DNA of 33,455 nucleotides from Alphaproteobacteria bacterium (lineage in GTDB: Bacteria > Pseudomonadota > Alphaproteobacteria > CACIAM-22H2): positions 1 through 33,455 of the forward strand of contig JBIKXN010000001.1 of NCBI GenBank assembly GCA_044355765.1. The letters run 5' to 3'. How positions within the stretch are numbered: position 1 is the stretch's first letter; each line of letters begins with the position of its first letter. Below are positions 9,007 through 28,805 of the stretch, in pieces. Below the pieces are notes generated by a model. The model saw nothing but the letters and a program-made list of their open reading frames with translations, made no database searches and was not told where the DNA came from. Both the position numbers and the translations under genes were made by a program.

Positions 9007-9660
9007 TCAGCCCGCAGCCTTGGCGGCGAGCCACGCGGCGACCTCCGCGCGATAGGCCTCCATCACGCTCTCGATGCGCGGATCGGCGGTGACGGCCTCG
9101 CGCCAGCGTCGCGTCCGGGGTCCGTAGACAGGAGGCCGCCCGAGCATCGCCAGCAGACCGTCGGCGATCGCGAGAGTCGGCGGAAAGCCGCAATCGGCGA
9201 GCGTCGGGGCGGGGCCCGCGGCGAAGGGGCCGCGGTCGTCCAGGAACCCGTCGAGCAGGGCGAGACGGCGCGCGAAGGTGTCGCCTTGCGCCGCGACGAT
9301 GGCGGGATCGCGTGTGGCCGGCGCCGCCTGGCCAAAGAGCGCGCGCAGCGGTGGCTCCAGATGCAGGTCGTGGAAGCGCGACAGGAACCGGATCCGGGCA
9401 CGCTCGCGCGCCGTTCCGGGCAGCAGAGCGGGATCGGGGAAGCGCTCCTCCAGATACTCGACGATCGTGTCGCTTTCGCTCAGCACCATGTCGCCCTCGA
9501 CCAGGGCCGGCACCGTGCCGAGCGGGACGATCCGCCGATAGGCCTCGCTGCGATAGCTGCCCTCGGGCGGCAGCCGCAGCTCGGGCACGATGCGCTTGAG
9601 CGCGCAGGCGATGCGCGTCTTGGCGCTGTAGCTGGAGAGCTTCGTCCAGTAGAGGATCAT
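9007..9660 (-). CDS. Glutathione S-transferase family protein
   Basis: Start at ATG 9660..9658 (MILYWTKLSSYSAKTRIACAL), overlapping the Rieske gene stop (ATGA). It has the thioredoxin-like GST N-domain signature VPALVEGDMVLSESDTIVEYL and a helical C-domain. The upstream 214 residues of the track ORF are Arg/Gly/Pro junk inside the Rieske gene. Confidence 0.8.
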   Translation of the reverse strand: MILYWTKLSSYSAKTRIACALKRIVPELRLPPEGSYRSEAYRRIVPLGTVPALVEGDMVLSESDTIVEYLEERFPDPALLPGTARERARIRFLSRFHDLHLEPPLRALFGQAAPATRDPAIVAAQGDTFARRLALLDGFLDDRGPFAAGPAPTLADCGFPPTLAIADGLLAMLGRPPVYGPRTRRWREAVTADPRIESVMEAYRAEVAAWLAAKAAG

Positions 9661-10982
9661 GACGCGGCCTCGTCGCCGCGCGGCGCGGCCAGCCGCGCGT
9701 CGATCCAGTCGGGTCTGGCGGCGGCCGGCTCGCGCGCGCTCGCCAGGACCAGATCCGCGACCCGTTTGCCGAAGGCGGCTAGTGCCTGGCGATCCAGGGC
9801 CGTCGCCGGTTCGACCGTGTCCTGGACGAAGGTGGCGACCAGACCGTCGGCGCCGGCCGGGACATGCGTGGGCGCGGTCCCCTCGGCGAGGGCGCGGATG
9901 TTCTTGCGCAGCAGGCGCCGCAGCATCGCCACGCCCTGATCGGAAGAGGCGAGCGTCTCGAGCGCGTGGACGGCGATGCGACGCTGCGACACCAGGACCT
10001 CGTAGTCGCCGGGCTGACGCTGGCGCTCCGCGTAGCTGCGCTCTTCCTCGGTCTGGCCGATGAAGTCGATGCTCTGCCTGCCGACCTTGGCGCGATCGCC
10101 GAGACCCTGCGGATCGAGTGCGTCGCTGAAATAGCGCCAGCCGATGACGAGCGTCTCGTGGTCGTCGATCGGCACCATCCAGCGCGTGAAGGCGGCGCGC
10201 TGGAAGACCTTGCGCCGGTCCGCCGCCTCCCAGATCGCGCCGCCCTGGTTGCAGTTCGGCAGGATCGTCTCGGTGCAGCGGGTCCAGAAATTCCCCGACC
10301 ACAGCCGCGTCTGGACGTTGATCATGCCGAGCGGGGTCTGGCGATACTCGATCTCCTGGTCGGCGCCCGAGGCGTCGCCGAACTGCGCGCCGGAGATCCG
10401 GGTATGCAGATAGACGACATGCACGGGATCTTGCGTGTTCTCGTAGACCTGTAGCCAGTTGCAGGGCATCCGGATCGCGAAGGGCACGGGCTCGGCGCCG
10501 GCGCGCGCGGTGTCGAAGATCGGGAAGGGCGGCGTCGTTTCGGGCGGCCCGAGATAGGCAAAGACGAGCCCGTCATGCAGATGCACGCGATAGGCGCCCT
10601 GGCAGCGCGTGTCGCGGATGCGGCTGGAGGGCGGTTCGGCAGGGGTCGAGAGGATCGTGCCGTCGATGTCGAAGGTCCAGCCGTGATAGCAACACGAGAT
10701 CCCGCGCTCCATCGGGATCCCGTATTCGAGGCTGGCGCCGCGATGCAGGCAGTGCCTGTGCAGCAGCCCGATCCGCCCCGACAGGTCGCGGAACAGCACC
10801 AGATCCTCGCCCAGGATGCGCAGCGCCAGCGGCCGCTCGCCCAGCTCCGACAGCATCGCGACGGGCTGCCAGGCGCGGCGGATGTATTCGCCGCAGGGCG
10901 TGTCGGGGCCCACCGACGTCAGCTCGGGATCGGGCGCGGGCACCGCGCGGCGCAGATAGCCGGAATAGGGCTGTGCCTTCAT
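9657..10982 (-). CDS. Rieske [2Fe-2S] non-heme-iron oxygenase, alpha (catalytic) subunit type
   Basis: 441-aa ORF. Rieske motif CLHRGASLEYGIPMERGISCCYHGW (CxH...CxxH). Mononuclear iron motif NTQDPVHVVYLH (DxxHx4H). No ferredoxin or reductase gene lies nearby. Confidence 0.85.
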   Translation of the reverse strand: MKAQPYSGYLRRAVPAPDPELTSVGPDTPCGEYIRRAWQPVAMLSELGERPLALRILGEDLVLFRDLSGRIGLLHRHCLHRGASLEYGIPMERGISCCYHGWTFDIDGTILSTPAEPPSSRIRDTRCQGAYRVHLHDGLVFAYLGPPETTPPFPIFDTARAGAEPVPFAIRMPCNWLQVYENTQDPVHVVYLHTRISGAQFGDASGADQEIEYRQTPLGMINVQTRLWSGNFWTRCTETILPNCNQGGAIWEAADRRKVFQRAAFTRWMVPIDDHETLVIGWRYFSDALDPQGLGDRAKVGRQSIDFIGQTEEERSYAERQRQPGDYEVLVSQRRIAVHALETLASSDQGVAMLRRLLRKNIRALAEGTAPTHVPAGADGLVATFVQDTVEPATALDRQALAAFGKRVADLVLASAREPAAARPDWIDARLAAPRGDEAAS

Positions 10983-10995
10983 GGGGAACGGATCT

Positions 10996-11766
10996 TCATC
11001 GGCGATCGCCGCCGTTGCGGGCCAGCCTGCGCTCGAGGCGGCGGACGAGGAACGAGACGAGCAGGATCAGCAGCAGATATTCGAGCACGAGGAACGTATA
11101 GATCTCCAGCGGCCGGTACTCGACCAGGGTCAATTCGTTGGCGCGCCGCGTCAGTTCCTGGAAGCCGATCACCGAGACCAGCGAACTCATCTTCAGGACA
11201 TAGACGAACTGGTTGCCCAGCGCGGGCAGGATGCGGCGGATCGCCTGGGGCAGGACGATCAACCGCATCGTCTGCCATCGGTTCAGCCCAAGGCTCTGGG
11301 CCGCCTCGGTCTGGCCGCGCGAGATCGACTGGATGCCGGCGCGGAAGATCTCGGCCTCGAACGCCGCGTCGCTGACGGCGAGGCTGATCACGCCTGCGGC
11401 GAAGACGCCGAACTGGATCCCGAGCACGACCGGCAGGCCGTAATAGACCCAGAGCAGCAGCACCAGCAGCGGTATGGATCGCACGCCCTCGACATAGATC
11501 CGGGCCGCCGCCCGCAGCAGCGTGTTGCGCGACAGCGCGAGCATGGCGAGCGCGGCGCCGGCCACCACGGCGATCGCGATCGCGGTCACCGAGATCGTGA
11601 CCGTCGCCAGCAGCCCGTCGAGCAGGAACTGGAGGTTCTTGCGACCGCGCGGGTCGAAGGGCGAGACGACGTACCAGCCCCAGCTATAGGTGCCGGGCCC
11701 GCAGCCGCTCGTCGCGGCAAGCAGGGCCGCGGCGAGCGCCAGTCGCGCGAGGCGCATGCCGGCCAT
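10996..11766 (-). CDS. Polar amino acid/opine-type ABC transporter permease
   Basis: Multi-helix hydrophobic protein with the His/Glu/Gln/Arg/opine permease core (YVEGVRSIPLLVLLLWVYYGLP ... EAAQSLGLNRWQTMRLIVLPQAIRRILPALGNQFVYVLKMSSL, the EAA loop). The track start 11769 is a TTG; the ATG is at 11766. Confidence 0.85.
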   Translation of the reverse strand: MAGMRLARLALAAALLAATSGCGPGTYSWGWYVVSPFDPRGRKNLQFLLDGLLATVTISVTAIAIAVVAGAALAMLALSRNTLLRAAARIYVEGVRSIPLLVLLLWVYYGLPVVLGIQFGVFAAGVISLAVSDAAFEAEIFRAGIQSISRGQTEAAQSLGLNRWQTMRLIVLPQAIRRILPALGNQFVYVLKMSSLVSVIGFQELTRRANELTLVEYRPLEIYTFLVLEYLLLILLVSFLVRRLERRLARNGGDRR

Positions 11767-11797
11767 CAATCTGTCAGGCCGGCCTGCGCGCCGCGGG

Positions 11798-12616
11798 TCA
11801 GGCCTTGGGCAGCCACTTGGCTTCGAGCGCGTCGAAGAAGCCTTCGGTGGTCTTGAGGGTCACCCAGGTGTTCACGAAGTTGAGCCAGGTCGGTTCGTCC
11901 TGGGCGACGACGAAGGCGAGCGGGCGGCGGTTGCGCGGACGCACGTTCTCGCCGAGCAGGGTCAGCTGGTCGAAGCGGCGGACCAGCGTGGACGCCTCGA
12001 TCGTGCTGGTGATCGTCACGTCGGCGCGGCCGGCGAGGACTTCCTGGAACCCCGTGGCCGGCGCCTGCACCGCGCGCAGCTGGGCGCGCGGGAAATGCGC
12101 CTTGGCCTGCTCCTCGAACACGGTGCCCATGAAGGTGGCGACGCGCACGCCGGGGTCGTTGATCGACTCCCAGGTCCGGTACTTGCCGGCATTGGCCTTA
12201 AGCGCCAGCGGCACGGTGCCGAGTTCGATATAGGGGATCGAGAACGCTGCCGTGCGCGCCCGCGCCATGCTGACCGAGGCGCCCGAGAAGATGTCGAAAC
12301 GGCCGGCGGCAATTCCCGCCACCAGCGTCGCCCACTCGGTCTGCACCCATTCGATCTTCGTGCCCATGTCGGCCGCCAGCTGCGTCATCGCCTCGATGTC
12401 GAAGCCGCGATACTCGTTGGAGCCGGGATCGCGGAACGACATCGGGTTGAAATCGCCGGTGGTCCCGATCCGGATGGTGCCGCGCTCCAGGATCTGCGCC
12501 AGGCGCGACCTGCCGGCCGTCTGGGCCTGGGCGATCTGCGGCGCAGCGGCGGCCGCGAGCAGGGCGCCGGAGGCGGTGCCGAGGCCGATCATTCGGCCGA
12601 GGTCGCGACGATTCAT
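11798..12616 (-). CDS. ABC transporter substrate-binding protein, family 3 (polar amino acid/opine type)
   Basis: ATG at 12616..12614 with GAGGA upstream. Signal peptide MNRRDLGRMIGLGTASGALLAAAAAPQIAQAQ (RR-containing). Family segments are GFDIEAMTQLAADMG and WATLVAGIAAGRFDIFSGASVSMARARTAAFSIPY. Confidence 0.85.
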   Translation of the reverse strand: MNRRDLGRMIGLGTASGALLAAAAAPQIAQAQTAGRSRLAQILERGTIRIGTTGDFNPMSFRDPGSNEYRGFDIEAMTQLAADMGTKIEWVQTEWATLVAGIAAGRFDIFSGASVSMARARTAAFSIPYIELGTVPLALKANAGKYRTWESINDPGVRVATFMGTVFEEQAKAHFPRAQLRAVQAPATGFQEVLAGRADVTITSTIEASTLVRRFDQLTLLGENVRPRNRRPLAFVVAQDEPTWLNFVNTWVTLKTTEGFFDALEAKWLPKA

Positions 12617-12719
12617 CGGATCATCCTCATTTCTGACGGGGGTAGCATCAGGATAGTCCGCCCCCGGCGAGGGTCAAATGCAGAAATCCTTGCGCCGCGC
12701 GCGCCGAGGACGGCAAATC

Positions 12720-12749
12720 GGGATCGTCGTTTCCTGGCCCGGGATCGTC
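12720..12749. promoter_or_regulatory. 9-bp direct repeat GGGATCGTC x2 upstream of soxB (candidate regulator site)
   Basis: The copies lie at 12720-12728 and 12741-12749, 21 bp apart (about two helical turns). The second copy ends 9 nt before the soxB ATG, within the 141-bp divergent region. Confidence 0.25.
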
Positions 12750-12757
12750 CTCCGACG

Positions 12758-14005
12758 ATGCGCTATTCAATCCTCTCGCTCGCGCGCAACGCCCTTACCG
12801 GCCACGCGCGCTGGCCGCGCGCGTGGCGCGACCCGCCGCTGCAGCAGGCCTACGACGCGGTCATCGTCGGGGCCGGCGGCCATGGGCTCGCCACCGCCTA
12901 CCACCTGGCGCGCGACCATGGGCTGACGCGGATAGCGGTGCTCGACAAGGGATGGCTTGGCGGCGGAAACACCGCGCGCAACACGGTGACGATCCGCGCC
13001 AATTATCTGCGCGAACCTTCGATGCGCTTCTACGCCGCGAGCATCGCGCTATGGGAGAACCTGTCCCGGACGCTGAACTTCAACGTGATGTTCAGCCAGC
13101 GCGGCCAGGTCGACCTGATCCAGACCTGGGGCAAGCTGCGCGACGTCAAGCGCCGGCAGGCCGCGCTGCGCCTGATCGGCGTGCCGTTCGACATCCTGAC
13201 GCCGGCCGCCGCGAAGGCGCGCATCCCGTTCCTCGACCTCGACGCGTCGGCCCGCCTGCCGGTGCTCGCGGCGACCTGGCATCCGACGGCCGGCGTCGCG
13301 CGGCACGACGCGGTCGCCTGGGGCTATGCGCGCGCCGCCGACGCGATGGGCGTGGACATCGTGCAGAATTGCGAGGTCCGCGCGATCCGGCGCGAGGCGG
13401 GGCGGGTGGTGGGCGTCGAGACCGCGCGCGGCTTCGTCGCCGCGCCGCGCGTCGCGCTCTGCGTCGCCGCGCATGCCGGCGTGCTGGCGGCAAGCGCCGG
13501 GTTCCGCCTGCCGATCGAGACCGTACCGCTGCAGGCCTTCGTGTCCGAGCCGCTGAAGCCGATGCTGGATGTGATCGTCAACATTCCCCATTTCGCGACG
13601 TATTTCTCGCAGAGCGACAAGGGCGAGTTGGTGATCGGGGGCGGCGCCGACGGCTACCCGTCCTATGCGTCGCGCGGCAGCTTCGCGGTCGTCGAGGAGG
13701 CGGTCGGCGCGATGCTCTCGCTGTTCCCGGCGCTGCGCCGGGTCAGGATGCTTCGGCAATGGGCGGGGTCGATCGATCTCTGCCACGACATCACGCCGAT
13801 CCTGTCGCCGTCGCCGGTCGAGGGGCTGAGCCTCAGCGTCGGCTGGGGGTCCGGCGGGTTCAAGGCGATCCCGATCGGCGGCGTCGCGCTCGCCCATCTG
13901 GTCGCGACGGGAACGCCGCATCCGCTGGCCCGACATCTGTTGTTGTCGCGTTTCGCCGCCGGTCGGCCGTTGTTCGAGACCGCCGGCGCGTCGAACCGGA
14001 TCTGA
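12758..14005 (+). CDS. soxB: Heterotetrameric sarcosine-oxidase-type beta subunit (FAD/FMN N-methyl amino acid oxidase)
   Basis: Start at ATG 12758 (MRYSILSLARNALTGHARWPRAW, the typical SoxB N-terminus). FAD fingerprint YDAVIVGAGGHGLATAYHLA. Followed by delta, alpha and gamma genes in the canonical order. Confidence 0.9.
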   Translation: MRYSILSLARNALTGHARWPRAWRDPPLQQAYDAVIVGAGGHGLATAYHLARDHGLTRIAVLDKGWLGGGNTARNTVTIRANYLREPSMRFYAASIALWENLSRTLNFNVMFSQRGQVDLIQTWGKLRDVKRRQAALRLIGVPFDILTPAAAKARIPFLDLDASARLPVLAATWHPTAGVARHDAVAWGYARAADAMGVDIVQNCEVRAIRREAGRVVGVETARGFVAAPRVALCVAAHAGVLAASAGFRLPIETVPLQAFVSEPLKPMLDVIVNIPHFATYFSQSDKGELVIGGGADGYPSYASRGSFAVVEEAVGAMLSLFPALRRVRMLRQWAGSIDLCHDITPILSPSPVEGLSLSVGWGSGGFKAIPIGGVALAHLVATGTPHPLARHLLLSRFAAGRPLFETAGASNRI

Positions 14006-14012: not shown

Positions 14013-14252
14013 ATGTTGAGCATCGCCTGCCCTTTCTGCGGTCCGCGCGCCGAACTGGAGTTTTCCTGCGGCGGCGAGATCGTGCGCCGGCCGGATGCCG
14101 CCGCGCCGCCCGACGCGGCCGCGCTGGCCGAGATCCTGTACATGCGCGACAATCTTCGCGGCGTGCACGAGGAATTGTGGTGGCATCGTCTGGGCTGCCG
14201 GCGCTGGTTCCGCCTACGGCGCGACACGCGCGACAACGGCATGCTGCCATGA
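14013..14252 (+). CDS. soxD: Sarcosine-oxidase-type delta subunit
   Basis: 79 aa: MLSIACPFCGPRAELEFSCGGE ... WWHRLGCRRWF, i.e. CxxC plus H/C zinc-ligand contexts. Sits between the beta and alpha genes. Its stop overlaps the soxA start (ATGA at 14249-14252). Confidence 0.85.
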   Translation: MLSIACPFCGPRAELEFSCGGEIVRRPDAAAPPDAAALAEILYMRDNLRGVHEELWWHRLGCRRWFRLRRDTRDNGMLP

Positions 14253-17191
14253 CCGGCTATCGTCTGCCGTCGTCCGGGGCGACGCAGGGCGGGGCGCAGA
14301 TCGCCTTCCGTTTCGATGGTCGGCGTCTGGCCGGGCGCGCGGGAGAGACCCTCGCGGCGGCGCTGCTCGCCGCGGGCGAGCGTATCGTCGCGCGCAGCTT
14401 CAAGTATCACCGGCCGCGCGGGGTCTACGGCTTCGGCCTCGAGGAACCGAACGCGCTGGTGCGCTGCGGCGAGGATCCGCTGGCGCTCGCGACCCGCATC
14501 CGTCTCGCCGATGGGCTGGATGCGCATCCGGTCAACGCCGCGCCGAGCCTGCGCTTCGACTGGCGGGAAATCCACGACTGGCTGTCGCCGCTGCTGCCGG
14601 CGGGTTTCTACTACAAGACCTTCATGGGACCGGCTGGCGCCTGGCCCCACTGGGAGCGCGCGATCCGCGCCGCCGCGGGGCTCGCGCGGCTCGACGGCAG
14701 CGCGCCGTCGTGGCGTCGCGACACGCGTCACGTCCATTGCGACGTGCTGGTGGTCGGGGCGGGCCCGGCGGGTCTGGCGGCCGCGCGCGACCTGGCGGCG
14801 AGCGGCGCGCGAGTCGTGCTCGCCGACGACGGCGCCGCGCCGGGCGCGGCCAATCTCGACGGCATGGAAGCCTGGATCGACGGCGAGCCCGTGGCCGACT
14901 GGGCGCGGCGCGCGACGGCGGAGTTCGACGGGGCGCAGGCATGCACGCGTCTGGCGGACACGCTGGTCTTCGCGCTGCACGACCATGGTTTCGCGCTGGC
15001 GGTCCAACGCGATCCTGCCGACGGGATGGATGCCCGTCTGTGGCGCATCCGCGCCGGTCGCGTGATCCTGGCGACCGGCGCGCTCGAGCGGCCCGCGCTG
15101 TTCGCCGGCAACGATCGCGCGGGCGTCATGTCGCTCGCGGCCGTACGACGCTACGCCGAGCGCTTCGCGGTCGCCTGCGGTCGCGATCTGGTCGTCGTCG
15201 CGAACAACTCCGCGGCCTATGGCGACGTCGCGCGGCTCCGGCGGATGGGAGTGGCTGTTTCGGCGATCGTCGATCCGCGGCGGCGCATCCCCGCCGGCGC
15301 GCTCGATCTGGCCGGCCGGTTCGGCGTCGCGGTGCTTGGCGGCCAATCCGCGATCGCGGCGGTCGGGCGGACGGTCGAGGCCGTGCGCGTGTCCTCTTCG
15401 GGCAGCGCCGGCCGCCCGCGTACCCTCGACTGCGATGTCCTGGCCGTCTCCGGCGGCTGGACGCCGCTGGTTCATCTGCACAGCCAGGCAGGCGGGCGGC
15501 TGGACCACGATGCGGCGCTCGACGCGTTCCTGCCTCGCCTCGACTCCCGGCCGGTGACGAGCATCGGTTCCTGCGCCGGCCGCATGACGCTCGCTGCCGC
15601 GCTCGCGGACGGGAAGGCGACCGCGCGGGCGATCGCCGCTGGCCTCGGACGAACGGTCCCGGCGGCGCGGATCGAGGACGTGATCGCGCCGGAGGATTTC
15701 GACCCCGATCCCGCCGTGCTGGTCGAAGCCCCAGGCGCGGCCGTGGCGGGCAAGGTCTTCGTCGACCTCGCCGCCGACGTCACGACAGCCGACATCCGGC
15801 TGGCGGCGCGCGAGGGCTACGATTCGGTCGAACTGATGAAGCGCTACACCACCGCGGGCATGGCCGGCGACCAGGGACGCCATGGCAATCTCGACGCGAT
15901 CGCGGTGCTGGCGCAGGCGCGCGGCGATCTGCCCGGCAGCGTCGGCACCACGACCTACCGGCCGCCCTTCGCGCCGGTCGAGTTCGGGACGATCGCGCCG
16001 CGCGCCGGCTGGTTCCTCGCGCCGGCCCGCGCGACGCCGCTCACGCCGTGGCACGAAGCCGCCGGCGCGGTCATGTACGATGTCGGCGCGAACTGGCGGC
16101 GACCCGGCTACTACCCGCGGCCGGGAGAGACGCTGGAGACGGCGACTGCCCGCGAATGCGTCGCCTGCCGCACCGGCGTCGCCATCTACGATTCGAGCCC
16201 GCTGGGGAAGTTCGAGTTCGGCGGACGCGACGTCACGACCTTCCTGGAGCGACTCTACTGCAACGCCTGGGCGGATCTGCCGCCCGGCATGGGGCGCTAC
16301 GGCATGATGCTGTTCGAGGACGGACGGGTCTTCGACGACGGTATCGCGTTCCGTCTCTCCGCGCGGCGCTTCCTCGTCACCACGACCACCGGCAACGCCG
16401 ATACTGCGCTGGCGCGGTTCGAGTACCATCGCCAGATCGTCTGGCCCGAACTCGACGTGCGCATCGTGCCGGTCACCGCGCAATGGGCGGATATCGTCGT
16501 ATGCGGACCGAAGGCGCGGGAGGTGATCGCCGCTGCGGGCACCGATATCGACCTCTCCAGCGAGGCCTTCGCGTTCATGGGCCTCCGCACCGGGCGCGTC
16601 GCCGGCATCGACGCCCGCGTTATGCGCGTCAGCTTCACCGGCGAACTCAGCTACGAGATCAACGTGCCCGCCCGCCGCGCGCTCGACCTCTGGACGGCGC
16701 TGATGCATGCCGGTGCGGCGCACGACATCGTGCCGCTCGGTTCCGAGGCCAACCATGTCCTGCGGATCGAGAAGGGGTTCATCTCCGTCGGGCACGAGGC
16801 GGACGGCGTCGTCGATCCATACGATCTCGGCATGGGGTGGATCGTCGCCACCGGCAAGCCGGATTTCGTCGGAAGGCAGGCGCTGCTGCGCAACCGCGCC
16901 GATCCCGCGCCGCGCGTCCAGCTCGTGGGCCTGCTCGCCGCCGATCCAGCCGCGGTGCCGGCGGAGGGCGCCGTGGTCCTCGCCGAGGACGGACGTTGGG
17001 GGCGCGGGCATGTGACGGCCAGCTGCATGAGCCCGACGCTGGGGCGTTCGCTGGCATTGGCGCTGGTGGAGGACGGACGACGGCTGATCGGCACGCGCGT
17101 GCGGCTCTTCGCGCCGTCCGGCAGCGAGAGCGAGGCGGAGGTCGTCAAGCCGGTCTTCTTCGATCCCAGGGGTGAGAGGATGCGCGCATGA
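14249..17191 (+). CDS. soxA: Sarcosine-oxidase-type alpha subunit (NAD-binding plus GcvT-like tetrahydrofolate-binding domains)
   Basis: Start at ATG 14249 (MTGYRLPSSG...FRFDGRRLAGRAGETLAAALLAAGERIVARSFKYHRPRGVYG). Dinucleotide fold VLVVGAGPAGLAAARDLA. The C-terminal aminomethyltransferase-like region reads YDSSPLGKFEFGGRDVTTFLERLYCNAW ... ELSYEINVPA. Confidence 0.9.
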   Translation: MTGYRLPSSGATQGGAQIAFRFDGRRLAGRAGETLAAALLAAGERIVARSFKYHRPRGVYGFGLEEPNALVRCGEDPLALATRIRLADGLDAHPVNAAPSLRFDWREIHDWLSPLLPAGFYYKTFMGPAGAWPHWERAIRAAAGLARLDGSAPSWRRDTRHVHCDVLVVGAGPAGLAAARDLAASGARVVLADDGAAPGAANLDGMEAWIDGEPVADWARRATAEFDGAQACTRLADTLVFALHDHGFALAVQRDPADGMDARLWRIRAGRVILATGALERPALFAGNDRAGVMSLAAVRRYAERFAVACGRDLVVVANNSAAYGDVARLRRMGVAVSAIVDPRRRIPAGALDLAGRFGVAVLGGQSAIAAVGRTVEAVRVSSSGSAGRPRTLDCDVLAVSGGWTPLVHLHSQAGGRLDHDAALDAFLPRLDSRPVTSIGSCAGRMTLAAALADGKATARAIAAGLGRTVPAARIEDVIAPEDFDPDPAVLVEAPGAAVAGKVFVDLAADVTTADIRLAAREGYDSVELMKRYTTAGMAGDQGRHGNLDAIAVLAQARGDLPGSVGTTTYRPPFAPVEFGTIAPRAGWFLAPARATPLTPWHEAAGAVMYDVGANWRRPGYYPRPGETLETATARECVACRTGVAIYDSSPLGKFEFGGRDVTTFLERLYCNAWADLPPGMGRYGMMLFEDGRVFDDGIAFRLSARRFLVTTTTGNADTALARFEYHRQIVWPELDVRIVPVTAQWADIVVCGPKAREVIAAAGTDIDLSSEAFAFMGLRTGRVAGIDARVMRVSFTGELSYEINVPARRALDLWTALMHAGAAHDIVPLGSEANHVLRIEKGFISVGHEADGVVDPYDLGMGWIVATGKPDFVGRQALLRNRADPAPRVQLVGLLAADPAAVPAEGAVVLAEDGRWGRGHVTASCMSPTLGRSLALALVEDGRRLIGTRVRLFAPSGSESEAEVVKPVFFDPRGERMRA

Positions 17192-17589: not shown

Positions 17590-17593
17590 GGGT

Positions 17594-18490: not shown

Positions 18491-18506
18491 GGCGGCGGGA
18501 GATGCG

Positions 18507-18531: not shown

Positions 18532-18554
18532 TGCTCTGGATCCGGCCCTATGCG

Positions 18555-21152: not shown

Positions 21153-22136
21153 TCAGCCGGCCCGTTGCCGGTACTTGAACGCCTTGTCGAAGCGGCCGAC
21201 GATGTATTCGCCGCAGGTCGTCGGCGGGTACTTCGCGGTCGCCGGATCGTCGAGCAGGTCGCGCGGATCGATCACCGTGTCGAAGGACGGGTCGAAGAAC
21301 ACCGCGACCGAATAGCGCTCGCGCCCGGACGTGTTGATCACGCGATGCGCGTTCGAACTGAAGCGGTTGTTGGTCCAGCGCGCCATCAGGTCGCCGACGT
21401 TGATGACCAGCGTGCCGGGGATGGGATGCGCGGTGATCCAGTCGCCGGCCTTGTTCAGCACCTGCAGGCCGCCGGTCGTGTCTTGCGACAGCAGGGTCAG
21501 GCCGCCGTAGTCGGTATGCGGCGCGACGCCGAACTGCTGTTCGCCGAGATCTGGCGGCTGCGGCGGGTAGTAGACCATCGATCCGCGCGCGAGCGGCTTG
21601 CGGAAATGCGGCTCGAAGAAGCCCGCGGGCCTGCCGAGGCTGAGCGCGAAGCCGCGCAGCAGACGTCTCCCGCAGCCGAGGATCGCGTCGTAATATGCCG
21701 ACAGGGTCGGGCGCATCTCGGGCATGAAGTCGGGCCATTGGTTCGGCCCCATCAGCTTCTTGCCGGCCTTGACGTCCGGGTCGTCGGCGCCGAGTTCCAG
21801 GCCCCAGAGGAAGCTCTCCTTGAGGTCGATCCTGGCGCCGGCATACATCTTGGCCTGCCCGACTGCGAGCCAGCCGCGATGGATCGCGTCGATCGTGGCG
21901 CGCGCCTTGGTCTCCGGCGGCAGGGCGAAGAAACGCCGGCTGACGTCGAAGATCGCGTCCACCTCGGCCTGCGGCACGCCATGGTTGCTGACATAGAAGA
22001 AGCCGATGCGCTCCGCGGCCTCGCGCATCCGGTCGGCGACGTCGCGCTGCGCCTGCAGGTCGTCGGCGGCGAGCGCCGCGACGTCGATGACCGGGATCTC
22101 CTCTACGGCGATGGTCTTGGCGGTTGCATAGGCCAT
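21153..22136 (-). CDS. 2-oxoglutarate/Fe(II)-dependent oxygenase, isopenicillin-N-synthase-like family
   Basis: Start at ATG 22136..22134 (MAYATAKTIAVEEIPVIDVAAL), with GAGGA upstream. N-terminal DIOX_N-like segment GFFYVSNHGVP. Facial triad HTD (APHTDYGGLTLL) plus distal His (SNAHRV). 2OG-binding context RYSVAVF. The upstream 113 residues of the track ORF are junk. Confidence 0.85.
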   Translation of the reverse strand: MAYATAKTIAVEEIPVIDVAALAADDLQAQRDVADRMREAAERIGFFYVSNHGVPQAEVDAIFDVSRRFFALPPETKARATIDAIHRGWLAVGQAKMYAGARIDLKESFLWGLELGADDPDVKAGKKLMGPNQWPDFMPEMRPTLSAYYDAILGCGRRLLRGFALSLGRPAGFFEPHFRKPLARGSMVYYPPQPPDLGEQQFGVAPHTDYGGLTLLSQDTTGGLQVLNKAGDWITAHPIPGTLVINVGDLMARWTNNRFSSNAHRVINTSGRERYSVAVFFDPSFDTVIDPRDLLDDPATAKYPPTTCGEYIVGRFDKAFKYRQRAG

Positions 22137-22212: not shown

Positions 22213-22821
22213 TCACGGCGGCAGGGGCAGGGCCCGCGGCGGCCGGGAAAAGACCCGGTGCACCATCGGTTCGAACACGGACAGCGGCGCCTCCGGCAAT
22301 CCCGGGGCGATGGTGTTCTGATCGTACTTGGCCACGAATTCCGCGGTCGCCGCGAAGGCGGGGTGCCCGCGCCAGCGTTCGCGCACGAAACGGTCGTTGC
22401 CCTCGAGCTCGCGGCAATGGAGCGACTGAAAATACATGTGTCGTTCGAGCATCCAGACCAGGTCGTCGCCGACATAGGGGGCGAGCAGCTGCGCGGCGAA
22501 GGCGCCGTGGTTCTGCGGACAGGCTATGAAGCCGATGTCGTGGAGCAGGGCGACGACCACGTAGTCCTCGGCGCGTCCATCGCGCATGGCGAGCGTCGCC
22601 GCCTGAACGCAGTGGCGGAAATTATTGACCCGATAGCCGAAGGTCGCGTCGTCGGCGCCGGCCGACAGCAGGCGCAGGGCCTGCCTCGCCTGCTCCTCGG
22701 CATAGTAGCTCCGGCGCTGGCTGTTGAGCAGGTCCCAGTCCACGGCGCGGAAATCGTCGAGCGTGTCCTTTTCCACGTAGGACCAGGACGGGTCGAGCAG
22801 ACGGCAATTGGCTTCGGTCAT
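22213..22821 (-). CDS. HD-domain protein with a PhnZ/TmpB-like (mixed-valent di-iron oxygenase) ligand pattern
   Basis: Start at ATG 22821..22819 ([15 protein letters not shown]), with GGGAAG upstream. Candidate ligands read directly from the translation are H70 (NNFRHCVQ), H94-D95 (ALLHDIG), H105 (PQNHGAF), H128 (LERHMYF) and D166 (AKYDQN). The segment [32 protein letters not shown] resembles my recollection of the PhnZ core. Confidence 0.75.
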
Positions 22822-22846
22822 GCAGCTTCCCGGCGCTTCGACCGGC

Positions 22847-22878
22847 AGAGTGCTATGGCTGGACGAAATTTGCACTCT
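22847..22878. promoter_or_regulatory. Inverted repeat in the divergent HD-operon/hutH control region (candidate operator)
   Basis: AGAGTGC (22847-22853) and GCACTCT (22872-22878) are perfect 7-bp inverted repeats, separated by 18 nt of the most AT-rich DNA in the window. CGTTTTTC follows on the + strand. Confidence 0.3.
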
Positions 22879-22910
22879 CGTTTTTCTGCCGCGCCGCGTT
22901 AGGTTTGCTT

Positions 22911-24464
22911 ATGACGCATGTGATTTCTCCCGGCGGGCTTTCTCTCGCCGCGCTGCGGCGCTGGCACGACGATGCCGGTCCGCTGGTTCTCGATCCGGCA
23001 GCCGCGCCGGCCGTCGCCGCCTCCGCCGCGGCCGTCGACCGGATTCTCGCCAAGGGCGACGCCGTCTACGGGGTGAACACCGGCTTCGGCAAGTTGGCGA
23101 CGACGCGCATCGCGCCCGACCGGCTGCGCGACCTGCAGACCGCGCTGGTGCTGTCGCATAGCGTCGGCGTCGGTCCGGCGCTGCCGCCCGAGACGGTGCG
23201 GATGATCGCGATACTCAAGGCGGCAAGCCTCGCGCGCGGCCATTCAGGCGTGCGCCCCGCGGTGATCGAGGCGCTGCTGGCGGCGATCAATCGCGGCGTC
23301 GTTCCCGTAATCCCGGCCAAGGGGTCGGTCGGAGCGTCTGGCGATCTGGCGCCGCTCGCGCATCTCAGCGCCACGCTGATCGGCCATGGCGAGGCGTTTC
23401 TCGGCAACGAGCGCATGCCGTCGGCGCAGGCCCTGCAGCGCGTGGGGCTCGAGCCGCTGCGCCTCGAGGCCAAGGAGGGGCTTGCGCTGCTCAACGGCAC
23501 GCAGGTCTCGACCGCCCTGGCGCTCGTGGGACTGTTCGCGGCCGAGGACGCCTTCGCCGCGGCGGTGATCGCGGGTGCGCTGAGCATCGACGCCGCGAAG
23601 GGCAGCGATGCGCCGTTCGACGACCGCATCCATGCCATCCGCGGCCAGCGCGGCCAGCGCGACGTCGCGGCGGTATATCGCCACCTGCTCGAAGGCTCCG
23701 CGATCCGGGCTTCGCATCTCGACTGCGAGCGGGTGCAGGATCCCTACTGCCTACGTTGCATGCCGCAGGTGATGGGCGCTTGTCTCGACTCGATCCGGCA
23801 TGCCGCCGACATCTTCCTGCGCGAGGCCAACGGCGTTTCCGACAATCCGCTGGTCTTCGCGGACGCCGGCGAGATCCTGTCCGGCGGAAACTTCCATGCC
23901 GAGCCGGTGGCGATCGCCGCCGATCTTCTGGCGATCGCGATCGCCGAGATCGGCGCGATCGCCGAGCGCCGCATCGCGATGCTGGTCGATCCTTCGACGA
24001 ATGGCGGGCTGCCGGCCTTCCTGGTCCGCGAGCCCGGCCTGAATTCCGGCTTCATGATCGCCCATGTCACGGCGGCCGCGCTGGCCAGCGAGAACAAGTC
24101 GCTGGCGCATCCCTCGAGCGTCGACAGCCTTCCGACCTCCGCCAACCAGGAGGACCATGTCAGCATGGCCACGCATGCCGCCCGCCGCCTCGGTGAGATG
24201 GCGCGCAATACCGCGACGATCGTCGGGATCGAGCTGATGGCTGCGTGCGACGGCATCGGCTTCCACGCGCCGCTGGCGACCAGCGCCCGGCTGACGACCG
24301 CGATCGCGGCGCTGCGCGCGCGGGTGGCGCCGGTGGAGCGCGACCGCTTCCTCGCGGGCGACATCGACGCCGCGCGGGAACTGGTCGAAAGCGGCGTGTT
24401 CGGGCGTTGGATGACCGAAGGGCTTATGCCCAGCGGTGGTGCGCAAGCGGAGGGCGGACGATGA
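22911..24464 (+). CDS. hutH: Histidine ammonia-lyase (MIO-dependent aromatic amino acid lyase family)
   Basis: ATG at 22911; the track start 22905 is a TTG two codons upstream. Supporting segments are [11 protein letters not shown] and the MIO-forming [16 protein letters not shown] (Ala-Ser-Gly encoded at 23334-23342). Length is 517 aa, and urocanase lies downstream. Confidence 0.9.
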
Positions 24465-25069
24465 CGAGTTGGATCAGGATGCTGCAATACGAAGAGTCGG
24501 AAGGCCATCTGCGCCAGCTCTACGACCGGGTGAAAGGGCCGGGCGGATCCATCGACAACGTGATGAAGATCCACTCGCTTCGCCCGCACACGATGGAAGG
24601 GCATTCGGCGCTCTACAAGAGCGTGCTGCACCATACCGGCAACACGACGCCCGTCTGGTTCCTGGAATGCCTGGGCATCTACACCTCGCTGGCCAACCGA
24701 TGCGACTATTCGGTCGCGCACCACTTCGCCGGCCTGACCCGTCTGCTCAAGGACGAGGCGCGTGCGAAGGCGATCTACGAGGCGCTGGCCGCAGGCGCGC
24801 CCGAGCGCGTCTTCGCGGGCAAGGAGCTGGCTCTGCTTCGCTACGTCAGGAAACTGACCCTGCAGCCGCAGAAGATGGAGCAGGGCGACGTGCAGGCATG
24901 CCGCGCCGCGGGCTGCACCGATGCCGAGATCTTCGAGGCCAATCAGGTCTGCGCCTATTTCAACTACTCGAACCGGCTGCTGAACGGGCTCGGCGTCACG
25001 ACGCAGGGCGATCTGCTCGGCTATTCGCCGCCCAACACCGACAAGCTCGACGATTGGGAGCATCAATGA
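24461..25069 (+). CDS. Carboxymuconolactone decarboxylase/AhpD-like 'peroxidase-related enzyme' family protein
   Basis: The ATG at 24461 overlaps the hutH stop (ATGA). [58 protein letters not shown] matches my recollection of the N-terminus of the uncharacterized peroxidase-related CMD subfamily. The Cys/His context is [12 protein letters not shown]. Confidence 0.75.
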
Positions 25070-26766
25070 CGATGGCCACCGTACCTTCCCGGCGCGACAA
25101 TGCGCGCCGCATCGCGGCGCCGCGCGGTTCCGACCTCACCTGCCGGTCCTGGCAGTCGGAGGCGGCGATGCGCATGCTGATGAACAATCTCGACGCCGAG
25201 GTCGCCGAGCGACCCGAGGAACTCGTCGTCTATGGCGGCATCGGCCGCGCCGCGCGCGACTGGCAGAGCTTCGACCGCATCGTCGCAAGCCTGAAGACGC
25301 TTGCCGACGACGAGACGCTGCTCGTGCAGTCCGGCAAGCCGGTCGGCATATTCCGCACCCATGCCGACGCGCCACGTGTCCTCCTGGCCAATTCGAACCT
25401 GGTTGGGCACTGGAACAACTGGTCACATTTCCACGAACTCGACCGCAAGGGCCTGATGATGTACGGCCAGATGACGGCCGGGTCGTGGATCTATATCGGC
25501 TCGCAGGGCATCGTGCAGGGCACCTACGAGACCTTCGTCGAGGCCGGACGCCAGCATTACGGCGGCGACCTGCGCGGGCGCTGGATCCTCACTGGCGGAC
25601 TCGGCGGCATGGGGGGTGCGCAGCCGCTCGCCGCGGTCTTCGCCGGCGCCTGCATGCTGGCTGTCGAATGCCAGCCGAGCCGGATCGAGAAGCGGCTGGA
25701 GACGAAGTATCTCGACCGCTGGACCAAGGATCTCGACGAGGCGCTGGACATGATCCGGGCCGCGACCGCGAAGGGCGAGGCGATCTCGGTCGGCCTGCTC
25801 GGCAACGCCGCCGAGGTGTTCCCCGAACTGGTGCGGCGCGCCAAGGCAGGCGACGCGCGCGCGCGGCCGGACATGGTCACCGACCAGACTTCGGCGCATG
25901 ATCCGATCAACGGCTATCTGCCCGTCGGCTGGACGCTCGACGACCATGCGCGGCTGCGCGAGAGCGACCCGGCGCGCGTCGAGAAGGCGGCGAAGGAATC
26001 GATGGCCGTGCATGTCCGCGCCATGCTCGATTTCCATCGCATGGGCGTACCCACGCTCGACTACGGCAACAACATCCGCCAGATGGCCAAGGAGATGGGC
26101 GTCGCCGACGCCTTCGACTTCCCGGGTTTCGTGCCCGCCTATATCCGGCCGCTCTTCTGCCGCGGTGTCGGGCCGTTCCGCTGGTGCGCCCTGTCCGGCG
26201 ATCCCGAGGACATCTACCGCACCGACGCGAAGATGAAGGAGTTGTTCCCCGAGGACCGGCATCTGCATCGCTGGCTCGACATGGCGCGCGCGCGTATCCG
26301 GTTTCAGGGTCTTCCGGCGCGCATCTGCTGGGTCGGCCTGGGCGGCCGCGCAAAGGCAGGGCTCGCCTTCAACGAGATGGTCCGGCGCGGCGAACTCAAG
26401 GCGCCCATCGTGATCGGTCGCGACCATCTCGACTCCGGGTCGGTCGCCTCGCCCAACCGCGAGACCGAGGCCATGCTGGACGGCTCCGACGCTGTCGCGG
26501 ACTGGCCGCTGCTCAACGCGCTGCTCAACACCGCGTCGGGCGCGACCTGGGTCAGCCTGCATAACGGCGGCGGCGTGGGCATCGGGTTCTCGCAGCATGC
26601 CGGCATGGTGATCGTATGCGACGGCAGCGAGGCCGCGGATCGTCGGCTGGAGCGCGTCCTGACCAACGATCCTGGCACGGGGGTGATGCGGCACGCGGAT
26701 GCCGGCTACGATATCGCCGTCGCCTGCGCGCGCGAGCACGGGCTCAAGCTGCCGATGCTCGGGTGA
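25066..26766 (+). CDS. hutU: Urocanate hydratase (urocanase)
   Basis: The ATG at 25066 overlaps the upstream stop (ATGA). Segments [50 protein letters not shown] and [12 protein letters not shown] (NAD site) are characteristic of urocanase. Length is 566 aa. Confidence 0.92.
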
Positions 26767-26773: not shown

Positions 26774-27073
26774 ATGGATGCGGCGGTGCTGAAGGCCTCG
26801 TTGGCCGGGCAGGTCGCGCCGCAGGGGCTGGCGCGTCCGGTCCTGGCGCTCTGGCATTGCGGGCGCGGCGAGTGGGATGCGGCGCACGGACTGGTGCAGC
26901 AGGCGGAAGGCGAGCCCGCGCATGACTGGGTGCATGCGCATCTCCACCGTGTCGAGGGCGACCTTGCGAATGCCGGCTACTGGTATCGGCGCGCAGGCAG
27001 GCCGGTCGCGCGCGGATCGCTCGAGTCCGAGTGGGCCGAGATCGCGGGGGCGCTTCTGGCGAGGTTGGAATGA
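26774..27073 (+). CDS. Small conserved-looking protein of unknown function (99 aa)
   Basis: The ATG at 26774 lies 7 nt after the hutU stop, and its own stop overlaps the next start (ATGA 27070-27073). The sequence has ordinary composition, including WVHAHLHRVEGDLANAGYWYRRAG. Coding status is inferred mainly from tight operon packing and frame-consistent codon bias. Confidence 0.55.
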   Translation: MDAAVLKASLAGQVAPQGLARPVLALWHCGRGEWDAAHGLVQQAEGEPAHDWVHAHLHRVEGDLANAGYWYRRAGRPVARGSLESEWAEIAGALLARLE

Positions 27074-28026
27074 AGACCGTCGTCTGCATCGAGCGCGCGT
27101 CGCTGGGGCCCGGCGTCAGCCTGCGGGCGCCGCGGTTCGCGCATGTCTGGCGCGACCATGACCGTACCTCGGCCGGAGACATCGTCGCCCGGCTCGCCGG
27201 CGCCGATATCGCGGTGGTCAATAAGCTGCCGATCGGCGAGGAGGTCCTGGCCCGTACCCCGGATCTGCGCATGATCGCGGTGACGGCGACGGGTACCGAC
27301 AATGTCGATCTCGCAGCCTGCCGCAGGCGCGGCATCGTGGTGTCGAATGTTCGCGGCTATGCGACGACGACCGTGCCCGAGCATACTTTCGCGCTGATCC
27401 TGGCGTTGCGGCGCGGTGTGGTCGGATACGCCCAGAGCGTCCAGCGCGGCGATTGGCAGAAAGCCGCGCAGTTCTGCTATTTCGACTTTCCGATCTCCGA
27501 CCTCCGCGGTTCGCGCCTGGGCATCGTCGGCGGCGGCGCCATCGGCGCGGCGGTCGCGTCGCTCGGTCGTGCCTTCGGGATGGACGTCGTCTTCTCGACC
27601 CAGCGCGGCGGGCCGGAACGCCCGCATTACATTCCGTTCGAGGCGGTCATCGAGACCGCGGACGTGCTGACGCTGCATTGCCCGCTGACGGCTGCGACCC
27701 GCGGCATGATCGACCGGTCCGTGCTGCGGCGCATGAAGCCGGGGGCGATCCTGGTCAACACGGCGCGTGGCGGCCTGATCGTCGACGCGGATCTGGTCGA
27801 GGCGCTGCGCGGCGGCTGGATCGCCGGTGCGGCCATCGATGTCACCACGCCCGAGCCGCCGCCCCCCGACCATCCCTTCATGCTGCTCGCCGGCCATCCC
27901 GGGTTCATCCTGACCCCGCATGTCGCCTGGGCCAGCGTCCAGGCGCGCCAGGCGGTGGCCGACCAGGTGATCGACAATATCGAGGCCTTCGTCGCCGGTG
28001 CGCCGCGCAACGAGGTGGTCAGATGA
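27070..28026 (+). CDS. D-isomer-specific 2-hydroxyacid dehydrogenase (glycerate dehydrogenase/hydroxypyruvate reductase-like)
   Basis: Start at ATG 27070 (MKTVVCIERASL). Supporting segments are TATGTDNVDLAACRRRGIVVSNVRGY, the Rossmann motif LGIVGGGAIGAAVA, VNTARGGLIVDADLVEAL, AAIDVTTPEP and LTPHVAW. Confidence 0.85.
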   Translation: MKTVVCIERASLGPGVSLRAPRFAHVWRDHDRTSAGDIVARLAGADIAVVNKLPIGEEVLARTPDLRMIAVTATGTDNVDLAACRRRGIVVSNVRGYATTTVPEHTFALILALRRGVVGYAQSVQRGDWQKAAQFCYFDFPISDLRGSRLGIVGGGAIGAAVASLGRAFGMDVVFSTQRGGPERPHYIPFEAVIETADVLTLHCPLTAATRGMIDRSVLRRMKPGAILVNTARGGLIVDADLVEALRGGWIAGAAIDVTTPEPPPPDHPFMLLAGHPGFILTPHVAWASVQARQAVADQVIDNIEAFVAGAPRNEVVR

Positions 28027-28805
28027 TTTCGGCCCGCCGCCGCGGCGAGTTTCCGGCGGGCGTGCCGCGCGGCCTGCCGGGCGGCCGGGAGGCCGCGCTC
28101 TATCGGCGCGTCTACGACGTGATGCGGCGCGCGATCGCGGACGGCGCCTGGGCGCTCGGCGAATCGCTGCCCAGCGAGGCGGGGCTCGGGGCGCGGTTCG
28201 GGGTCAGCCGCATCACGATTCGCCAGGCGATGCAGATGCTGCAGAACGCCGGCTATATCCGCACGCAGCGGGCGCGGCGCGCGGTCGTGATCGCGCGCGA
28301 CCCGCTCGGCGCGTCGGGAGACACGATCGACACGATCGAAGAACTGATCGAGGCTGCAAGCGACACGCGGCTGCGCATCCTGAGCTGGCGCAGCGAACTG
28401 GCGCCCGAGGCGGCGCAGATCCTGGGCGTGCCGCCGGGAACCGATCTCAAGTGCCTGCGCGGCGTCCTCATGCGCGCGCGCACCCCGCACGCGCGGTCGA
28501 TCATCTATTTCCACCCCTCGATCGGCGCCCGGCTCAAGCGCGCCGATTTCGACGACGTGATCGTCTTCCGGGTCATGCGCCGCGAACTGGGCATCCAGCT
28601 CGTCGACGTCAAGCGGACGATCTGGGCCGAACTTGCCACTCCGGAGGACGTCGCGCAGCTCGGCGTCAAGCGGGGCGACGCGATGCTATGCACCCGGCTG
28701 GTGTATCGCGGGCCGCAGGGGCTGCCCGTCGAGGTCACCCTCTCGCGCTACCCGGGCCGCGAATTCAGCCTGACCTACAGCATCGATGTCGGTGGCGACG
28801 CTTGA
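28023..28805 (+). CDS. GntR-family transcriptional regulator, HutC/UTRA subfamily-like
   Basis: The ATG at 28023 overlaps the upstream stop (ATGA). The winged-helix segment is LPSEAGLGARFGVSRITIRQAMQMLQNAGYIRTQRARRAVV, followed by a C-terminal effector domain of about 170 aa. It is the last gene of the hut-like operon. Confidence 0.85.
   Translation: MISARRRGEFPAGVPRGLPGGREAALYRRVYDVMRRAIADGAWALGESLPSEAGLGARFGVSRITIRQAMQMLQNAGYIRTQRARRAVVIARDPLGASGDTIDTIEELIEAASDTRLRILSWRSELAPEAAQILGVPPGTDLKCLRGVLMRARTPHARSIIYFHPSIGARLKRADFDDVIVFRVMRRELGIQLVDVKRTIWAELATPEDVAQLGVKRGDAMLCTRLVYRGPQGLPVEVTLSRYPGREFSLTYSIDVGGDA

Follow-up and report, generated by a model that had tools for sequence, protein, structure and literature searches.

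A putative catabolic gene set of conserved linkage, interleaved with hutH and hutU in a lake-water alphaproteobacterium

Glycine betaine and proline betaine are demethylated stepwise by a Rieske oxygenase (GbcAB or Stc2), a middle enzyme (DgcAB or StcD) and the tetrahydrofolate (THF)-dependent oxidase SoxBDAG, and the caffeine N7-demethylase NdmCDE is a Rieske-type oxygenase with a glutathione S-transferase (GST)-like subunit, NdmE. HD-domain oxygenases belong to another kind of system and, to our knowledge, only four have been characterised so far. For PhnY/PhnZ, TmpA/TmpB and SmaO/SmaX it is established that a 2-oxoglutarate (2OG)-dependent oxygenase acts first and the HD-domain oxygenase second (PMC12186529). 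Features of both kinds, clusters for the catabolism of N-methylamines and pairs of 2OG and HD oxygenases, come together in a block of four operons at positions 9007 to 28805 of contig JBIKXN010000001.1 (assembly GCA_044355765.1), the whole of which (33,455 nucleotides) is the window analysed here. The contig comes from a metagenome-assembled genome (MAG) of an alphaproteobacterium from lake water (3.7 Mb, 562 contigs, 90% complete), and at least 17 metagenome runs from lakes or fresh water contain DNA near-identical to the window.

We propose, at a probability of about 0.45, that the block is one catabolic gene set, put together in a form specific to the genus from a modular system found widely in Alphaproteobacteria, and that it is interleaved with the only hutH and hutU genes of the organism. 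The proposal is built on the observed gene content and conserved linkage. Recurrent parts of the module are an importer with a substrate-binding protein of either the Pu1068 type (SBP1) or the AncCDT type (SBP2), a divergent SoxBDAG, a GST, a 2OG oxygenase, an HD-domain protein (HD) and an AhpD/CMD-like protein (CMD), with a Rieske oxygenase in some lineages. The gene set is common in lake, soil and marine metagenomes, and cultured carriers exist (Roseomonas sp. AR75, Falsiroseomonas oryzae and Tagaea).

Conserved linkage of the block

Linkage was examined from four independent anchors, HD, SBP1, CMD and SBP2. The HD anchor was followed in 15 GTDB genome loci, nine Pfam-annotated contigs and the whole order of the MAG (one family, 50 genomes); an HD homologue is present in 23 of these 50 genomes, including all eight congeners, and HD homologues number at least 292 in total, those in plasmid records being only 33-45% identical with annotation uninformative or missing. 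Near HD, in varying order, lie SBP1 with its permease (perm1), GST, a creatininase-like gene, soxBDAG with a short gamma subunit, the 2OG gene and CMD, often accompanied by a LysR regulator, a HisC-like aminotransferase and a split thiamine diphosphate (TPP)-dependent decarboxylase. The SBP1 and SBP2 anchors were placed in 397 good genomes sampled evenly from Alphaproteobacteria. SBP1 homologues (E 1e-60 or better) occur in 20 of these (about 5%), eight of which have [creatininase][GST][SBP1] divergent from [ATPase-perm1-CMD-2OG-(XRE)-NicX-like], and the partners of SBP2 are CMD, 2OG, Sox, this Rieske type, GST and RidA.

The CMD anchor was aligned to metagenome contigs of at least 8 kb at less than 75% identity, and the 26 contigs recovered carry HD (16), 2OG (17), SBP1 (13), GST (12), creatininase (10), SBP2 (8), SoxB (6) and Rieske (5) genes, counts that are lower bounds since contig ends cut the flanks. 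The commonest form has the single operon SBP1-perm1-creatininase-GST-HD-CMD-2OG with soxBDA divergent from it. An earlier reading of this DNA, made without database searches (the sequence-only reading), had read the operons, speculatively, as one functional unit. Because the same partners return in shuffled order across many families from any anchor, we agree that the block is very probably one functional catabolic unit.

Regulators of the module vary by lineage, being GntR here and LysR or XRE elsewhere. In many families the module comes with a further conserved protein of about 370 aa (locus L085, 13640-14800; locus L079, 8128-9240), which matches nothing in Pfam or NCBIfam and which the present genome lacks. 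Its neighbours in the ESM Atlas are NicX (2,5-dihydroxypyridine dioxygenase) and Peptidase_M29-like clusters (0.93-0.97); the name NicX-like, taken from that match, is a lead and not an alignment.

Components of the block and their surroundings

The G+C content of the window is 68-72%, and genes were therefore placed by third-position G+C, with junctions checked by translation; domains and families were assigned with Pfam and NCBIfam scans using the curated NCBIfam cut-offs. Frame analysis, both scans and the junctions place every gene named in the sequence-only reading where it had put it, and add a membrane desaturase-like oxygenase, the CMD gene, a 99-aa open reading frame (ORF) and a 2-hydroxyacid dehydrogenase (HADH) that its list lacked. 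The four operons form two divergent pairs. Operon 1 (minus strand; SBP1, permease, Rieske oxygenase and GST) faces away from the sox operon (plus strand; soxB, soxD, soxA and soxG), and operon 2 (minus strand; HD protein, 2OG oxygenase, FA_desaturase-like protein, permease, SBP2 and permease) from the hut operon (plus strand; hutH, the AhpD/CMD-like gene, hutU, the 99-aa ORF, a D-2-hydroxyacid dehydrogenase and a GntR/UTRA regulator). ATGA overlaps join Rieske/GST, soxD/soxA, soxA/soxG, hutH/CMD, CMD/hutU, small ORF/HADH and HADH/GntR, and the start codons of HD and hutH are 89 bp apart. The stop codons of soxG (plus) and the importer-2 permease (minus) lie 4 bp apart (17589-17594), which leaves no room for separate terminators.

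SBP1 (11798-12616, minus strand; Pfam SBP_bac_3) falls in the Pu1068 or "pseudo-cyclohexadienyl-dehydratase" clade, and its nearest solved relative is Pu1068 itself (5KKW; SAR11_1068 of Pelagibacter ubique; E 7e-69). For Pu1068, tests of the 20 proteinogenic amino acids showed no binding and the screening of several hundred metabolites did not yield the ligand, while carboxylates and a sulfobetaine were bound weakly. The importer-1 permease (10996-11769, minus strand; Pfam BPD_transp_1) is of the polar-amino-acid type and EhuC/GlnP-like, below the NCBIfam cut-off, and adjoins SBP1 in every related locus. Importer 2 consists by Pfam of a permease (17594-18490), SBP2 (18555-19361) and a second permease (19417-20211), all on the minus strand; the nearest solved relatives of SBP2 are 9E2B and the arginine-binding ancestor AncCDT-1. 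The two systems swap at the same position in otherwise equal operons (L083 versus L184). This interchange and the Pu1068 ligand data suggest that the imported substrate may be non-proteinogenic. Pfam and NCBIfam scans found no ABC ATPase gene for either importer in the window; a candidate is located on contig C481 of the same MAG. Importer 2 was also considered as a generic histidine importer of hut operons and rejected, as none of the 12 SBP2-anchored loci has hut genes and all those with partners carry module genes.

Two of the 20 genomes with SBP1 are streamlined, of 1.3 Mb (locus L095) and 1.4 Mb (locus L081), and hold SBP1 homologues of 46-50% identity, and in the 1.3-Mb genome SBP1-perm1 directly adjoins soxB and soxA; these loci may be the SAR11 Pu1068 locus. 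Contigs of one lake metatranscriptome include a piece identical to the window over SBP2 and the adjoining permease (18472-18708) and near-identical pieces over hutU. The expression runs are stored as contigs only, such that uncovered parts are uninformative, and one wastewater "RNA" run is probably DNA.

The sox genes (soxB 12758-14005, soxD 14013-14252, soxA 14249-17191 and soxG 17188-17589, plus strand; NCBIfam and Pfam) keep the B-D-A-G order of heterotetrameric sarcosine oxidase; SoxD was assigned by Pfam, and SoxA has the THF-binding GCV_T domain. Against the NCBIfam cut-offs SoxB passes (541 vs 529) and SoxA (1046 vs 1164) and SoxG (49 vs 144) fail. SoxG is short (133 aa), as is the gamma subunit of related modules. 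By sequence, soxBDAG would encode a divergent heterotetrameric THF-dependent N-methyl oxidase, and N-demethylation by this enzyme is probable. In Roseomonas sp. AR75 an MTOX-like monomeric oxidase takes the place of Sox.

The Rieske gene (9657-10982, minus strand) encodes a 441-aa non-haem-iron oxygenase alpha subunit (Pfam Rieske, weak LigXa_C). Its CxH..CxxH motif at residue 78 and DxxHxxxxH motif at residue 185 are shared by Rieske oxygenases in general. Among solved structures the enzyme comes closest to the phthalate and isophthalate dioxygenases of Comamonas testosteroni (E 2.6e-38 to 3.6e-34), while Stc2 (3VCA, E 2.7e-6) and CntA (6Y8J, E 5e-7) match over the Rieske domain only, and NdmA/NdmB match weakly (E 2.5e-10), NdmA again over the Rieske domain only. 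The protein is therefore predicted to be of the phthalate family, with a catalytic domain unlike that of Stc2 or CntA. The sequence-only reading had noted a Rieske enzyme of the size typical of betaine N-demethylases; the size agrees and the class does not. Orthologues of 46-60% identity occur in modules of other families, and most module versions lack this Rieske type. The analogy drawn with glycine-betaine and proline-betaine demethylation is thus not supported, given the distance from Stc2/CntA and the lack of this Rieske in most modules. No cognate reductase or ferredoxin was found in the window, and the genome has only a 30%-identical match to the reductase of locus L079.

The adjoining GST-like gene (9007-9660, minus strand; 217 aa; Pfam GST_N_3 and GST_C_2) overlaps the Rieske gene by ATGA, and its best match, a weak one, is zeta-class maleylacetoacetate isomerase (TIGR01262, 71 bits vs cut-off 171). 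In other loci the GST recurs beside SBP1-perm1, mostly with a creatininase-like gene and without this Rieske type, and it is not tied to this Rieske enzyme.

Three further putative oxygenases are encoded in operon 2. HD (22213-22821, minus strand; 202 aa) has the ligand set of mixed-valent di-iron oxygenases as a sequence pattern, H..HD..H..H..D (H70, H94, D95, H105, H128 and D167); it matches TmpB/PhnZ marginally (E 6e-4, N-terminal part) and TIGR03276 and NF049941 weakly. The 2OG gene (21153-22136, minus strand) encodes a 327-aa Fe(II)/2OG oxygenase resembling isopenicillin N synthase (IPNS) and ethylene-forming enzyme (EFE) (Pfam DIOX_N and 2OG-FeII_Oxy; HxD at residue 207), with the reconstructed EFE ancestor Anc357 (9OVH) and PaIPNS (6JYV), neither with an assigned substrate, as the nearest solved structures. 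The third (20208-21125, minus strand; 305 aa) is a membrane di-iron oxygenase of the Pfam FA_desaturase family with His boxes and weak matches to CrtR, DesB and GntB; it is a sporadic member of the module, seen in this genus and in three other loci (L038, L164 and L183).

In the hut operon, the CMD gene (24461-25069, plus strand; Pfam CMD, TIGR01926) overlaps hutH and hutU at its start and stop, and its solved relatives are AhpD-like. AhpD-type peroxidases are expected to have a CxxC pair. The CMD orthologous group is tightly conserved and has an invariant C81 and H88 and no CxxC, and a thiol-peroxidase role is doubtful because C81 stands single. CMD adjoins the 2OG and HD genes in other lineages. 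The 99-aa ORF (26774-27073, plus strand) has no Pfam or NCBIfam match and its Atlas clusters hold hypothetical proteins only; it adjoins HD in Tagaea-like genomes. The D-isomer-specific 2-hydroxyacid dehydrogenase (27070-28026, plus strand; Pfam 2-Hacid_dh and 2-Hacid_dh_C) is syntenic in congeners, and the GntR/UTRA regulator (28023-28805, plus strand; Pfam GntR and UTRA) lies downstream in some of them (L078, L105). In the 89-bp HD-hutH spacer a 7-bp inverted repeat, AGAGTGC(N18)GCACTCT (22846-22877), could be an operator; the SBP1-soxB spacer lacks it.

Paralogues of block genes lie on contigs C101, C30, C272 and C504 of the MAG and include an aromatic-amino-acid lyase 42% identical to HutH, a Rieske protein (56%), an HD-domain protein (35%) and a second soxBDA set, the sox genes on C272. 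Left of the block (1-8727) is a cluster resembling sugar-acid catabolism, with three MR_MLE (enolase-superfamily) paralogues, an HpcH/HpaI aldolase, a 2-hydroxyacid dehydrogenase, a short-chain dehydrogenase/reductase (SDR), an aldehyde dehydrogenase cut by the contig end and an inserted PhoD-like phosphatase gene (3659-4984). To the right, between an SDR (28841-29656) and another 2-hydroxyacid dehydrogenase (32146-33174), lies an 815-aa ORF (29679-32126, plus strand) in which 2-oxoacid dehydrogenase E1 alpha and E1 beta (transketolase-like) are fused to a C-terminal lipoyl domain; the ORF is not syntenic with the block in congener G006.

The hut genes, the substrate and competing explanations

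hutH (22911-24464, plus strand) encodes a histidine ammonia-lyase (TIGR01225, 671 bits vs cut-off 539; MIO motif GASGD at residue 142) and hutU (25066-26766, plus strand) a urocanate hydratase (TIGR01228, 970 bits vs cut-off 375). HutH and HutU are 59-66% and 76-78% identical, respectively, to the proteins of canonical hut clusters (hutI-hutH-hutU) of related genera and are therefore vertical orthologues, and hutU is single copy in this genome and in each congener. The GntR/UTRA regulator scores 77 bits with the HutC model TIGR02018 (cut-off 220) and is not a HutC orthologue. An ergothioneine route for HutH/HutU was rejected, the thiourocanate-hydratase models scoring below their cut-offs (NF058530, 696 vs 930; NF058531, 720 vs 880) and HutH retaining its MIO motif.

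The sequence-only reading also suggested the hut genes as the end pathway of the block, for which the evidence is divided. The order hutH-CMD-hutU-small ORF-HADH divergent to HD is kept across the genus, in at least six congeners and in three metagenome contigs, and the HisC-like aminotransferase lies between HD and hutH in three congeners and at the matching place in the HD operon of other genera. Three other lineages have canonical hut genes right beside the module: in L085 (family f77) only 5 bp separate it from the end of a complete hutI-hutH-hutG-hutU operon, in L086 (family f168) hutF-hutC-hutH abuts it, and in L106 hutIHGU precedes ABC2-CMD-sox. On the other side, most modules have no hut neighbour, the hut genes are the only, vertically inherited copies of the organism, and the canonical hut clusters of Tagaea, an Asaia MAG and Falsiroseomonas are far from HD. 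With one hut locus per 2.7-5 Mb genome, chance would place one in a 20-kb window at about 1 in 100-200 loci, and the two hut hits among about 30 module loci outside the family give P near 0.02, a rough, post hoc and uncorrected value. It weighs more that CMD and the small ORF, which flank HD/2OG elsewhere, are translationally coupled to hutH/hutU here. There is thus moderate evidence that some lineages, at least, form histidine or a Hut intermediate as the module product; that the product is histidine or urocanate in this genus we hold only tentatively, at somewhat less than even odds.

Under the proposed working, the importers would take up a non-proteinogenic N-methylated zwitterion, probably N-heterocyclic and of the imidazole or histidine type, and the Sox-like enzyme would remove an N-methyl group and transfer it to THF. 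The oxygenases would then strip further decoration or side-chain carbon, the 2OG enzyme hydroxylating the carbon beside the acid group and HD cleaving oxidatively, and the product would enter HutH and HutU and end as glutamate. Several members of the module (the Sox/MTOX-like enzyme, RidA, the HisC-like aminotransferase, the 2-hydroxyacid dehydrogenase, the TPP decarboxylase and HutH) target the alpha-carbon of an amino, hydroxy or keto acid, or a position next to it; Sox/MTOX-like enzymes act on N-methyl amino acids and RidA on imines. Others, namely the phthalate-type Rieske, the NicX-like protein, the creatininase-like hydrolase (a family that includes deformylases and cyclic amidases) and the GST with its cis-trans isomerase match, suggest a heteroaromatic carboxylate. 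These two sets of pointers, taken with the hut link, make an N-methylated compound of the imidazole or histidine type the leading if unproven candidate for the substrate.

Hercynine itself, which the sequence-only reading named as a candidate beside N-alpha-methylhistidines, is a highly improbable substrate: the Rieske is of the wrong type for a betaine demethylase, most modules lack it, and there is no middle demethylase. The ordinary, vertical nature of HutH and HutU and the failure of Pu1068 to bind proteinogenic amino acids also speak against it. The hercynine lyase HBTL of Shewanella was set aside as a different route. A bolder proposal is that the module forms an aerobic route, not described before, by which histidine-derived natural products lose their decorations and histidine is handed back to hut. 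Its possible substrates include N-alpha-methylhistidines, hercynine and ring-N-methyl histidines, as well as ovothiol and ergothioneine; the Sox-like and Rieske enzymes would remove N-methyl groups, and the 2OG/HD pair, helped by the AhpD-like and GST-like proteins, would remove other substituents. We regard this as improbable; if true, it would identify the ligand class of Pu1068.

Several points weigh against our proposal of one gene set interleaved with hut. HutH and HutU are ordinary, single-copy, vertical enzymes that must also serve plain histidine catabolism, and their synteny within the genus may be inherited rather than selected. A hut neighbour is absent from all 26 HD-anchored loci passing the <75% identity filter and all 12 SBP2-anchored loci. 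In the 90%-complete MAG no hutI, hutG or hutF scores above cut-off; hutI lies elsewhere, on another contig, in six of the eight congeners, one of which (G010, the one checked) also has hutG and hutF elsewhere, a search of the MAG for the G010 hutI region gave no trace, and none of the three genes was found in the genome of G006 (93% complete). An assembly gap may account for their absence here. The divergent spacers (12617-12757 and 22822-22910) gave no shared operator, and the creatininase-like and NicX-like genes common in the module elsewhere are absent from this genome. A creatininase-like gene as a substitute for HutI is unlikely, since L085 has both. The aminotransferase, the Ppd/ComDE-like decarboxylase and the HD protein all have relatives in phosphonate metabolism. 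The literature searched, which also covered HD oxygenases and the catabolism of hercynine and ergothioneine, held no description of this gene combination and none of bacterial methylhistidine demethylation.

The phosphonate relatives lead to another explanation, that an N-methylated aminophosphonate is degraded (N-methyl-2-aminoethylphosphonate, or phosphonoalanine where the aminotransferase and decarboxylase are present) and that the hut adjacency is incidental. The 2OG enzyme would hydroxylate C1, HD would cleave the C-P bond to sarcosine or glycine and phosphate, and Sox would demethylate the sarcosine. The only solved relatives of HD are TmpB/PhnZ and its NCBIfam hits are the two phosphonate HD oxygenases, but the TmpB/PhnZ similarity is very weak. 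A 2OG/HD pair is the known pattern for 2-aminoethylphosphonate and its trimethyl derivative, yet the partner here is of the IPNS class and not TauD/PhyH. SoxB passes the sarcosine-oxidase beta cut-off, although SoxA and SoxG do not reach theirs. The split TPP enzyme found in other genera has its matches among phosphonopyruvate and sulfopyruvate decarboxylases, the aminotransferase is in the HisC/CobD group, which handles phosphorylated substrates, and Pu1068 binds a sulfobetaine weakly. However, no phnW, phnX, phnA or phosphoenolpyruvate-mutase gene was seen in any context, the importer is of the polar-amino-acid type, the GST, CMD, creatininase-like, Rieske and NicX-like proteins are left without a role, and the recurrent hut adjacency and the hutH-CMD-hutU arrangement go unexplained; we consider this explanation unlikely.

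A substrate of another kind, an N-methylated N-heteroaromatic carboxylate with no relation to histidine (a trigonelline-like pyridine betaine, for example, or a hydroxylated pyridine carboxylate), would give roles to other members, with ring hydroxylation by Rieske/2OG, NicX-like cleavage, creatininase-like deformylation, GST isomerisation and Sox demethylation of an N-methyl amino acid, in parallel with homarine, which is degraded via N-methylglutamate. The conserved 370-aa partner with its NicX and Peptidase_M29-like grouping fits, though that Atlas match is a lead only, as do Hyphomicrobiales versions of the module with a VanA-type Rieske and reductase, Amidohydro_2, Sox, creatininase-like and GST genes; so do the nearness of the window Rieske to aromatic dicarboxylate dioxygenases, the cis-trans isomerase match of the GST, and the weak binding of N-methylpiperidinium sulfonate and carboxylates by Pu1068. 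Homarine induces a sarcosine-oxidase-like complex (PMC13236597). The window and genome, however, have no NicX-like, creatininase-adjacent or Amidohydro_2 genes, the known hom and tgn gene sets differ, no role suggests itself for HD or CMD, and the hut adjacency again goes without explanation, so that this account is quite unlikely. When the homarine operon homABCDER was compared by description, the FAD-binding HomA, HomB, the peptidase-like HomC and the aldehyde dehydrogenase-like HomD were not found in the block (PMC13236597). Finally, the block may have no common pathway and be a catabolic island, where a hut operon of the ordinary kind merely neighbours a sarcosine oxidase, two amino-acid importers and assorted oxygenases. 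HutH, HutU and SoxB do pass generic family cut-offs, the window flanks carry unrelated catabolic genes, and the lack of a shared operator and the regulators that differ among lineages (GntR vs LysR or XRE) would be expected. Four independent anchors nevertheless recover the same partners, in an order that is shuffled among many families, CMD is coupled in translation to both hut genes, and HD and hutH start only 89 bp apart, which makes mere proximity very unlikely.

Comparison with described systems

The block gives genomic context to Pu1068 and could help identify its ligand. Knowing the substrate would reveal a further route taken by N-methylated dissolved organic nitrogen in fresh and sea water, and if the hut link is real, the route would be the first to lead by demethylation from methylated histidines to histidine. 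Like SBP1, Pu1068 is encoded beside ABC permeases; it is an orphan binding protein, whereas the SBP1 family is tied to a defined enzyme set.

With the GbcAB/Stc2, DgcAB/StcD and SoxBDAG routes the block shares a Rieske oxygenase, a SoxBDAG-type THF-dependent oxidase, an importer and the logic of stepwise N-demethylation. It differs in having no DgcAB/StcD-type middle enzyme and no Rieske reductase, in SoxA and SoxG that fall under the family cut-offs with a short gamma subunit, and in an importer of the polar-amino-acid type in place of ProX/OpuA. The translationally coupled Rieske and GST genes recall NdmCDE, but in most related loci the GST pairs with a creatininase-like gene and has no Rieske gene beside it.

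The canonical hut system (hutUHIGF with HutC) has true equivalogs in the HutH, with its MIO motif, and HutU of the block; the operon hutH-CMD-hutU-small-2HADH-GntR differs from it in gene order, in a regulator that is not HutC and in the absence of hutI, hutG and hutF here. As in PhnYZ, TmpAB and SmaOX, a 2OG gene lies beside that of an HD protein, and hydroxylation near an acid group followed by four-electron cleavage would be expected. Unlike PhnYZ and TmpAB, in which the partner hydroxylase is of the TauD/PhyH class, the HD protein of the block is paired with a 2OG oxygenase of an unexpected class, IPNS/EFE (DIOX_N), and sits with Sox, GST, CMD and an amino-acid-type importer.

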